Assembly (NCBI RefSeq): GCF_056746865.1
Contig: NZ_CM163382.1
Direction: 5' to 3' (one strand)
DNA length: 64,000 bases
In this document: one piece after another, positions 23,139-24,423 of the stretch
Layout of the letters: every line of letters begins with the position of its first letter
Numbering within the stretch: position 1 is the stretch's first letter
The notes under the pieces: model-generated
What the model saw: the letters and a program-made list of their open reading frames with translations, nothing else
What the model was told of the DNA's origin: nothing
Database searches by the model: none
Translations under genes and position numbers: made by a program

Positions 23139-23162
23139 CACTGCTATTTGCCTGATAAATCT

Positions 23163-23195
23163 AAAACCCGGTAAGCATTTAGCGCCGGGTTTTTT
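23163..23195 (+). terminator. Rho-independent terminator after hrpA
   Basis: Stem aaaacccgg / ccgggtttt followed by T-run. Confidence 0.7.
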
Positions 23196-23243
23196 CTTTA
23201 TGAATTCTGAAAAATAGCAAGGGAGATACTCCTTACGTGCTTA

Positions 23244-23555
23244 TTACAAATCTGCTTGATGAGGACGATATACTGGATACCAAATATTACTGCAACAAAG
23301 AACTTCACTGTTTTTGTCAGAAATAAAAATCGTAATTTCCATATCATCCCAACCTTTAACATCTCTGACTACCATCCATAATGGAATATCAAGGCCGTAT
23401 GATTTCATACCATCAGGAAGAAATTTAATAGCAGTGATTTTGTATGCCAGCGAGCCATTAAGATTATACTTTTTACAATATTTTTCTGCTATCGAATTCA
23501 CTTTGTTTTCAGTAAGAATAGGAGCGATTATTTTATTATTCATGAGACTCCACAT
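23244..23555 (-). CDS. Hypothetical small protein (103 aa from ATG 23555, or 99 aa from ATG 23543), downstream gene of a two-gene cassette
   Basis: ORF in AT-rich DNA; the ATG at 23543..23541 overlaps the stop of the upstream gene (ATGA), suggesting translational coupling; no family recognised. Confidence 0.5.
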   Translation of the reverse strand: MWSLMNNKIIAPILTENKVNSIAEKYCKKYNLNGSLAYKITAIKFLPDGMKSYGLDIPLWMVVRDVKGWDDMEITIFISDKNSEVLCCSNIWYPVYRPHQADL

Positions 23556-24034
23556 TGCTGTAAATAAAGAATAATTTCAACTTGCATTTCCACTAACTCA
23601 CCAAAATTTTCAAAGCATAACTCACAAGGGAAATCACCGACATCATCGGAAAATATACCAAAATCATGAATGAGAATATAAATTTTTAGGCTGTTGCGGT
23701 CAAGAAAAGCTACACTCCCATCGCCAAAACTGCCAACAGGAAAAGGATCAATGTTGTTCAATAATGGATATTCTTTTTTATAATCTTCCCATTGTTGCAA
23801 AAATAGAGGGTAATATCTGTCCAGATCCTTCAAAGTATAAATTTGAGGATCGACAAAATGACATGCGCCAAAATGAGACAATAACTGCCGATAGTCTTTT
23901 GGAATATGTGTTGCGTATTTATCCTCAAATAAAAGAAGGTTATCTTCAGTTTCCGGAGCGGTTACGCAACCTGTAAGTCCTGTTGTTTTTACGGCAGGCC
24001 AGGCGGTTTCTAAAATTTGAAACATTTTTTCCAT
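23540..24034 (-). CDS. SMI1/KNR4 (SUKH-1)-like protein, putative immunity-type protein (164 aa)
   Basis: 164-aa ORF in AT-rich DNA with SUKH-like features by eye (WPAV..., IPKDYRQLLSHFG, GDGSVAFLD); family assignment is from memory of motifs, not a search. Confidence 0.55.
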   Translation of the reverse strand: MEKMFQILETAWPAVKTTGLTGCVTAPETEDNLLLFEDKYATHIPKDYRQLLSHFGACHFVDPQIYTLKDLDRYYPLFLQQWEDYKKEYPLLNNIDPFPVGSFGDGSVAFLDRNSLKIYILIHDFGIFSDDVGDFPCELCFENFGELVEMQVEIILYLQQCGVS

Positions 24035-24423
24035 GTATGTTTCTCGACATATAGTATTATGTTGATGAATAAAAAGGACAATTTGTCTCCTTAGACGGAT
24101 AGTAGTTTATAGCTCAGGCCAGATATTATTCAATTTAAATTTAAGGATTTCCCATTAATGAGCGTGTTGCAAATGTTCCCATTGATTGAGAAATATAAGA
24201 ATGAATATTTCATAAATATCACACCAACTTATCTGTCACTTAAAAATGATAGAACATTATGTTATTGATGTTTTATCAACAGTTTCTCCGCAAATACAGT
24301 ATGACTAAAACCAGTGTCTGGTTCGCGATGGCGCGATAGAAAAAGGATCATCTTCCTTTCAGAGTGCTCCGCTTCTCACTATTATCTCACGCAGTATTCT
24401 TAAAGGAACGATAAGGAGGAACC

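Follow-up and report, generated by a model that had tools for sequence, protein, structure and literature searches.

Isolated and supernumerary genes of the SUKH superfamily, whose core fold combines four helices with six strands (a hairpin and a meander of four strands), have been proposed to protect their carriers against non-self toxins (Zhang et al. 2011, PMC3113570). For Bacteroidales, orphan SUKH genes were shown experimentally to give protection against a type VI secretion system (T6SS) nuclease (Azhieh et al. 2025, PMC12247911), and in the poly-immunity loci of Firmicutes, small genes for unrelated putative inhibitors stand side by side on a single strand, with no toxin among them (Zhang et al. 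2012, PMC3482391). Here, we analyzed a two-gene cassette lying between hrpA and ydcF in a stretch of 64,000 nucleotides (nt) of contig NZ_CM163382.1 (RefSeq assembly GCF_056746865.1), hereafter the window, in which position 1 is the first letter and to which all coordinates refer unless another locus is named. The cassette encodes a 164-aa protein that is, by profile matches, a member of the SUKH/SMI1-KNR4 family, together with a 99-aa protein. It has no toxin gene beside it, it has diverged along with its surroundings, and the SUKH protein is a candidate orphan immunity protein.

The gap between hrpA and ydcF measures 1285 bp in the window versus about 270 bp in K-12-type strains, where the spacer (269-271 bp in the O16:H48 strain L002 and in C600) has zero annotated genes. 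Pairwise BLAST revealed that 128 unrelated bases in K-12-type strains stand in for positions 23213-24350, and the G+C content is 0.30-0.38 over 23100-24450 versus 0.50-0.58 in hrpA and ydcF. Two minus-strand open reading frames (ORFs) lie in the spacer, at 23540-24034 (164 aa) and, as listed, at 23244-23555. The plus-strand tcat at 23540-23543 is a minus-strand ATGA in which the SUKH stop overlaps the start of the second gene; thus the likely start of the latter is the ATG at 23543, with GGAG 5-8 nt upstream, giving a product of 99 aa. The RefSeq annotation of a locus with the identical sequence has exactly these two coding sequences (CDS): WP_000413852.1, entered as "SMI1/KNR4 family protein", and WP_001060290.1, entered as "hypothetical protein". 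A reading of the letters without database searches (the sequence-only reading) had taken hrpA and ydcF to be close neighbors in K-12, had described an AT-rich insert of about 1.3 kb between them with two minus-strand genes joined by an ATGA overlap, and had seen SUKH/SMI1-KNR4 features in the 164-aa product and no toxin gene next to it; each of these points was confirmed. Neither outcome named there as refuting the reading occurred, since K-12-type strains lack the two genes at this position and the 164-aa product has significant SUKH matches. The features of the region are as follows.

19236-23138, plus strand: hrpA (ORF listing).
23139-23212, no strand: left portion of the spacer, shared by every allele (a four-allele alignment is invariant through the terminator, and the match to K-12-type strains stops at 23212).
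23155-23201, inside the left spacer part: intrinsic terminator of hrpA, an inverted repeat (inverted-repeat search).
23213-24350, no strand: variable segment of 1138 bp with 34% G+C, replaced by other cassettes in other strains (BLAST against L002, L003, and L004).
23217-23236, minus strand: terminator-like hairpin with a T-run just 3' of the 99-aa gene (consensus scan, a pattern match only).
23244-23543, minus strand: gene for the 99-aa protein WP_001060290.1 of an undescribed small family (predicted PepSY/cystatin-like fold, W..D(V).GWDD motif).
23540-24034, minus strand: gene for the 164-aa, single-domain SUKH (SMI1/KNR4) protein WP_000413852.1, a candidate orphan immunity protein (Pfam, RefSeq name, motifs, and selection on the ORF).
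24035-24423, no strand: AT-rich noncoding stretch between the divergent SUKH and ydcF genes, with no ORF of at least 40 aa wholly inside.
24147-24311, plus strand: degenerate remains of the final gene in the O157-type four-gene cassette (BLAST pieces and translation against gene 4 of L004).
24424-25224, plus strand: ydcF (ORF listing).

The genes flanking the spacer are housekeeping genes. The promoters of both the SUKH gene and ydcF must lie within 24035-24423; promoter-like matches found in the spacer by the consensus scan were weak and no commoner than in shuffled sequence. The spacer contained no Rfam family, the single match being a subthreshold one on the hrpA terminator, and a repeat search of it gave neither significant repeats nor element boundaries. 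The final 20 codons of the remnant (24249-24311) read IEHYVIDVLSTVSPQIQYD followed by the stop, and RefSeq flags about 24243-24308 as a partial pseudogene.

The 164-aa protein matched three Pfam models over residues 27-129, SUKH_6 (2.8e-6), SMI1_KNR4 (1.8e-5), and SUKH_5 (3.3e-5), and UniRef, like RefSeq, already names it by family. It carries the motifs IPKDYRQLLSHFGAC (residues 44-58) and FPVGSFGDGSVAFLD (residues 98-112), whose columns show little or no variation among 28 homologues; across that alignment, the conserved blocks are IPxxYRxLL..FG.C and FP.G..GDGS..F.D. In the Pfam models, the SUKH hallmarks are a motif in the N-terminal helix, (L/I)PxxY..(F/L)L...G, and, in a strand ahead of the beta-meander, a motif rich in Gly and Asp. 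The protein is predicted to be cytoplasmic and to consist of a single domain. Scans against NCBIfam, PADLOC, and PHROGs returned nothing significant for it, and neither cassette protein matched a defense model in PADLOC-DB 2.0 at E values up to 1. A single-sequence AF2 model was poor (pLDDT, the predicted local distance difference test, of 43) and displayed helices followed by four strands at residues 97-129, with no hairpin, while searches of the PDB with the sequence and with a 28-sequence profile gave chance-level matches only and no SUKH structure.

The cassette was found in 185 of 5426 complete E. coli genomes (3.4%), each time as one chromosomal copy, and also in E. fergusonii. Identity was at least 99% for 174 of the copies, 95-99% for 2, and about 93% for 9. 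The SMI1/KNR4 CDS and the hypothetical-protein CDS were annotated under the cassette in 59 of 60 sampled carriers, the exception having the insertion sequence IS1 in its SUKH gene. IS1 lies in the SUKH gene of strain 2017C-4173W12 (NZ_CP030768.1) and in the 99-aa gene of E. coli KTE122, and the read-through products end in GNDSNLLIVFYVQIMPDDFVMQLHRF.

At least three other alleles occupy the hrpA-ydcF site, and all inserts have 34-39% G+C. Two of them contain the following features.

L004 (E. coli O157:H7 9.1_Anguil) 3362-5050, plus strand: four-gene allele encoding proteins of 141, 112, 143, and 125 aa, at the same hrpA-ydcF site.
L003 1952-2809 and L095 (E. fergusonii CP056936.1) 5914-6771: gene for a protein with DUF7021 and DUF2262 domains, at the same site.

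The four-gene allele, typified by O157:H7, occurs in 587 of the 5426 genomes as two sequence types (about 99-100% and about 91%), and its four proteins matched no Pfam or NCBIfam family and gave just one insignificant PADLOC match (JAB, E 0.023). The DUF7021/DUF2262 allele is present in 5 E. coli genomes, and its protein matches no defense or named family besides DUF7021 and DUF2262. A composite allele in E. fergusonii (CP056936.1) combines the DUF2262 gene with a frameshifted 99-aa gene and an intact SUKH gene, and the E. coli DUF2262 allele corresponds to this composite minus about 880 bp between two CAAAT microhomologies, a deletion by which both cassette genes were lost. Since the remnant at 24147-24311 derives from the four-gene cassette, the SUKH cassette apparently replaced most of it. 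The spacer is a small hotspot of cassette turnover immediately downstream of the hrpA terminator; a search of the literature library used here yielded nothing relevant on such a hotspot, on DUF2262, or on either accession.

Between the window allele and the 93% allele, identity is 93.6% for the 99-aa gene, 95.6% for the SUKH gene, and 92.8% for the noncoding part, with 94.8% for hrpA and 96.0% for ydcF. The cassette has therefore diverged as much as its flanks, indicating that it is an old resident rather than a recent arrival, one which has codiverged with its surroundings and which most lineages have lost or exchanged for another insert. Each of the five diverged alleles compared has an intact SUKH ORF, at about 5-7% nucleotide divergence and with E. 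fergusonii included. Its ratio of nonsynonymous to synonymous polymorphism (pN/pS) is about 0.4 (0.38-0.40), and in the E. fergusonii comparison (pN/pS 0.38) nonsynonymous changes are fewer than under neutrality (binomial P = 0.013). Because both genes are conserved in 185 genomes, distant homologues exist, and the SUKH ORF has this deficit of nonsynonymous changes, both cassette genes are real and not chance ORFs.

These data bear on the possibility that the cassette is cargo with no function, the slowly eroding residue of an ancient insertion that some lineages retain only through drift. Such decay would fit its absence from 96% of genomes, the IS1 insertions in both genes of some strains, the frameshifts in the 99-aa gene, the loss of both genes with the 880 bp between CAAAT repeats in the DUF2262 allele of E. 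coli, the pN/pS of 0.36-0.40, and the failure to find a convincing promoter. It agrees less well with a SUKH ORF that stays open through all the divergence sampled, with the significant shortage of nonsynonymous changes in it, and with the annotation of both CDS in nearly all sampled carriers, and we regard drift alone as rather improbable.

Relatives of the SUKH protein outside Escherichia were few among named organisms. A word-based search of 5.8 billion proteins retrieved copies from Escherichia only, and a tblastn search of plasmid records yielded one relative, in the Subdoligranulum variabile record OY725843.1 (39% identity, BLASTP 8e-26), which is the only named non-Escherichia homologue (L014 9632-10387; SUKH-family profile score 1.7e-10). 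This homologue sits in a long same-strand array together with genes whose products match Imm68, Imm33, Imm51, SUKH-3, SUFU, DUF1963, DUF4241, DUF4253, DUF4259, and DUF4261, and the array is a typical poly-immunity locus with no toxin. The array, unannotated in the record, spans L014 5000-18750 and includes a 2065-aa protein; the Pfam matches of the array, SUKH_6 among them, suggest that this protein strings together several immunity-type domains.

A scan of metagenomes added 75 SUKH relatives of 126-254 aa (mostly 147-164), which are 34-47% identical to the E. coli protein and 70-90% identical to one another. Most of them are solitary genes among housekeeping genes. A neighbor from the 99-aa family is present at none of their loci, and only in Escherichia are the two genes paired. 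DNA identity of 80-97% between unrelated contexts (metagenome loci L020-L094, with a locus G+C of 0.31-0.61) is confined to the SUKH gene and roughly 100 bp on each side, which suggests that this subfamily moves as a mobile single-gene cassette in gut bacteria. Orphan immunity genes that are shared horizontally would be expected to show such a pattern. Many of the metagenomic copies are preceded by a conserved mini-ORF of 20 codons, MKTAKNRDRIVKLLKKMQEK.

Several candidates for a toxin partner were tried. In the window, neither the spacer nor its immediate neighbors, hrpA and ydcF, contain a toxin gene or toxin fragment, and the only very large ORF, at 4370-10189, encodes a BigA-like autotransporter and not a polymorphic toxin. 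Eight large ORFs upstream of SUKH homologues were considered as polymorphic toxins, and the products of seven could be identified as helicases, HsdR, pyruvate phosphate dikinase, glycogen phosphorylase, a heparin-lyase-like protein, and an AAA ATPase; the eighth, a 1244-aa protein directly upstream of the homologue in L059, has no classification. Fic/DOC neighbors were rejected as partners, since they formed just three small clusters at variable positions. A phage origin or an anti-defense role was likewise dropped, as tblastn against phage records found no relatives of either cassette protein, and the viral-contig and BFVD searches with the 99-aa protein found nothing. The sequence-only reading had offered two versions, an orphan immunity cassette or a remnant of a displaced toxin-immunity module. 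The first agrees with the published orphan SUKH genes (PMC3113570, PMC12247911), and the second found no support, because the sole gene remnant (24147-24311) belongs to a different cassette, being the C terminus of the last gene of the four-gene O157:H7 type.

The same homologues bear on whether the SUKH protein serves the cell in a capacity that has nothing to do with toxins, for example, as a binding or regulatory factor for a host protein, the cassette then being an accessory physiological module. Analogues for such a role are Syd, which acts on SecY, and Smi1/Knr4 in yeast, and the superfamily has nonimmunity members (PMC3113570). In addition, most of the distant homologues stand alone among housekeeping genes with no identified toxin or immunity neighbors, and identities of 70-90% among homologues are higher than expected for proteins racing diversifying toxins. 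A housekeeping role fits poorly, however, with presence in only 3.4% of E. coli genomes and with single-gene mobility across unrelated contexts, and one homologue lies inside a poly-immunity array. We therefore consider a toxin-unrelated role unlikely, although it is the alternative that we take most seriously.

The 99-aa protein was characterized in parallel. It matched no Pfam, NCBIfam, PADLOC, or PHROG family, and the Pfam PepSY model remained unmatched even at E values up to 10. A confident structure model of the 99-aa protein shows a PepSY/cystatin-like fold, of a kind typical of protein-binding or inhibitor modules, while a PDB search with its sequence gave chance-level matches only. As it has no N-terminal hydrophobic segment, the protein would reside in the cytoplasm, in which it differs from classical PepSY domains. 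Only about ten relatives outside Escherichia, at ~40% identity and sharing the pattern W..D(V).GWDD...ISD...V.CC...PH, came out of an exhaustive HMMER search covering 1.84 billion representative proteins, and the word-based search of 5.8 billion proteins found few copies. No relative was confirmed by two scans of genome contigs, and nothing was found by a viral-contig scan, by tblastn against phage records, or by a BFVD fold search with the model.

The 99-aa homologues reside in contigs of low G+C (29-34%) as solitary small genes, with AraC/GyrI-type and MerR regulators, a flavodoxin-like protein, a two-component system, and oxidoreductases as neighbors; at the loci examined, none adjoins a SUKH gene or a recognizable toxin. 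Some family members have C-terminal extensions, which in P0016 / AFDB D1AJU5 (Sebaldella termitidis) is an unclassified domain of ~110 aa; the member P0021 has a DUF3781 domain, and several others end in a basic tail, KL(T/S)xKE(K/R)RLKR. Within Escherichia, the 99-aa gene is frameshifted in the 93% lineage, in the E. fergusonii composite, and in one metagenomic allele, while the SUKH gene is intact in the 93% lineage. A pairing specific to Escherichia, together with a frameshifted 99-aa gene beside an intact SUKH gene, fits two independent modules; rather than being tied to the SUKH gene as an obligate partner, the 99-aa gene is probably a passenger, independent and dispensable. By no test run does the protein belong to an immunity family. 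It is best assigned to a small, undescribed family of PepSY-like fold, and its gene is dispensable in at least one lineage.

These observations also argue against a toxin-antitoxin-like or anti-phage pair, in which the upstream SUKH protein would neutralize or sense and the 99-aa protein would be the effector. The gene order and ATGA overlap do resemble those of type II toxin-antitoxin operons, loss of the downstream gene with persistence of the upstream one in the diverged lineage is a frequent pattern in decaying pairs of this type, and other small cassettes of unknown function share the site. Yet the 99-aa family occurs alone beside housekeeping genes without SUKH, the SUKH homologues never have a 99-aa-family neighbor, and the predicted fold is that of a binding or inhibitor module and no known toxin fold. 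In addition, neither protein matched PADLOC, phage records held no relatives, and a scan of viral contigs gave no member of the 99-aa family. Such a pair is accordingly very unlikely.

Taken together, orphan immunity emerged as the most likely function of the SUKH protein, an assignment that we make tentatively and place short of an even chance. It is made plausible by the poly-immunity context of one homologue, the apparent mobility of the subfamily, and purifying selection on the SUKH ORF. Under this explanation, an old, AT-rich, and originally foreign two-gene cassette sits in the turnover hotspot downstream of the hrpA terminator, and its SUKH protein would bind and block the toxic C-terminal domain of an effector injected by competitors, of the contact-dependent inhibition (CDI), Rhs, or T6SS type, which the carrier strain itself does not make; the 99-aa gene would be translationally coupled to the SUKH gene. 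The gene structure, the SUKH family membership, the lack of a toxin, the distribution, age, and turnover of the cassette, and the constraint on the SUKH ORF are observed; toxin neutralization, the identity of the toxin, and any role of the 99-aa protein are what we infer here. Since the identifiable neighbors of the homologues were negative for toxins and the 99-aa protein is in no immunity family, the immunity function rests on family membership.

Several observations weigh against orphan immunity. The SUKH fold was confirmed neither by the AF2 model nor by the PDB searches, and the superfamily also holds proteins with no immunity function, such as Syd, Smi1, and FBXO3 (PMC3113570). A pN/pS of about 0.4 is relaxed relative to typical core genes, and the cassette is missing from the great majority of E. 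coli genomes (96%) and bears IS1 insertions and frameshifts. Among the neighbors of the 75 homologues, which formed 265 clusters, the recurrent ones that could be named are housekeeping genes: exodeoxyribonuclease III (xth), a drug/metabolite transporter (DMT), NhaC, UppP, RlmD, Tag, and a sulfatase maturase. The 20 most frequent Pfam families of 77 neighbor representatives included neither an Ntox nor an Imm family, and no toxin was identified beside the 75 homologues, some of whose close neighbors (~136-206 aa upstream, 546 aa downstream) are unclassified, so that a minority association is possible. The check for toxin domains beside homologues elsewhere was thus negative for all identifiable neighbors, with the one further homologue lying in the toxin-less Subdoligranulum array.

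A broader version of the orphan-immunity explanation would make the hrpA-ydcF spacer a small landing pad in Escherichia for interbacterial-defense cassettes taken up from elsewhere, the SUKH gene a representative of a single-gene subfamily traveling among gut bacteria, possibly across phyla, and giving broad orphan immunity to a toxin domain common to many competitors in the gut, and the 99-aa protein a second inhibitor, of a new cytoplasmic kind; we judge this combination to be something of a long shot. If an incoming toxin is indeed neutralized by the SUKH protein, the orphan-immunity strategy known from Bacteroidales would have an example in E. coli, and the locus would represent a determinant, specific to certain lineages, of how strains compete in the gut. 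The site itself offers a natural experiment, with empty, SUKH-bearing, four-gene, DUF2262-bearing, and composite alleles at one conserved chromosomal position, and the 99-aa family, being small and having a confident fold model, could receive a name and a function. Current understanding is not overturned, as RefSeq already labels the gene by its family and orphan immunity is an established concept: the SUKH gene is an orphan SUKH gene of the known kind, and the 99-aa family and the hrpA-ydcF allelic series are modest additions.

Elsewhere in the window, the autotransporter gene at 4370-10189 (plus strand) is an intact gene for a 1939-aa BigA-like adhesin, located ~1 kb downstream of a ydbH homologue. 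Its K-12 counterpart, ydbA, is disrupted by insertion sequences, and in K-12 the fea/tyn/paa genes lie between ydbH and ydbA; in the window, the interval between the ydbH homologue and the BigA-like gene is too short for fea/tyn/paa. An intact gene for a 333-aa type I glyceraldehyde-3-phosphate dehydrogenase occupies 26902-27903 (minus strand), the gapC position. In K-12, gapC is a pseudogene, which is consistent with a window from a non-K-12 lineage.

Compared with the SUKH-1/SMI1_KNR4 immunity proteins (PMC3113570), the 164-aa protein is alike in its profile match, in the IPxxY..LL..G and GDGS..F.D motifs, in being predicted as a small cytoplasmic single domain, and in occurring as an isolated copy. 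It is unlike the SUKH-1 immunity proteins of toxin systems, which have a linked toxin, since none was found here or beside the homologues examined. Type II toxin-antitoxin systems differ from the cassette, in which no recognizable toxin family is present and whose gene pairing is not conserved beyond Escherichia. The 99-aa protein, for its part, departs from PepSY domains (M4 peptidase propeptides, YpeB, YpmB, and FoxB) in having no Pfam PepSY match, signal peptide, or membrane anchor, and in having its own motif, W..D(V).GWDD...ISD...V.CC.

The closest parallels are with loci of orphan immunity genes. The orphans of the acquired interbacterial defense (AID) and recombinase-associated AID (rAID) systems of Bacteroidales (PMC12247911) likewise include SUKH genes without a cognate effector, horizontally shared among gut bacteria and diverged from effector-linked copies. 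The rAID systems, however, have a tyrosine recombinase, long co-oriented arrays, and conserved intergenic motifs, in contrast to the two genes in an Escherichia host, with no recombinase and no repeats, described here. The poly-immunity loci of Firmicutes are larger than the E. coli cassette, which has two genes, the second in no described Imm family; it is to one of these loci (OY725843.1) that the nearest named homologue of the SUKH protein belongs.

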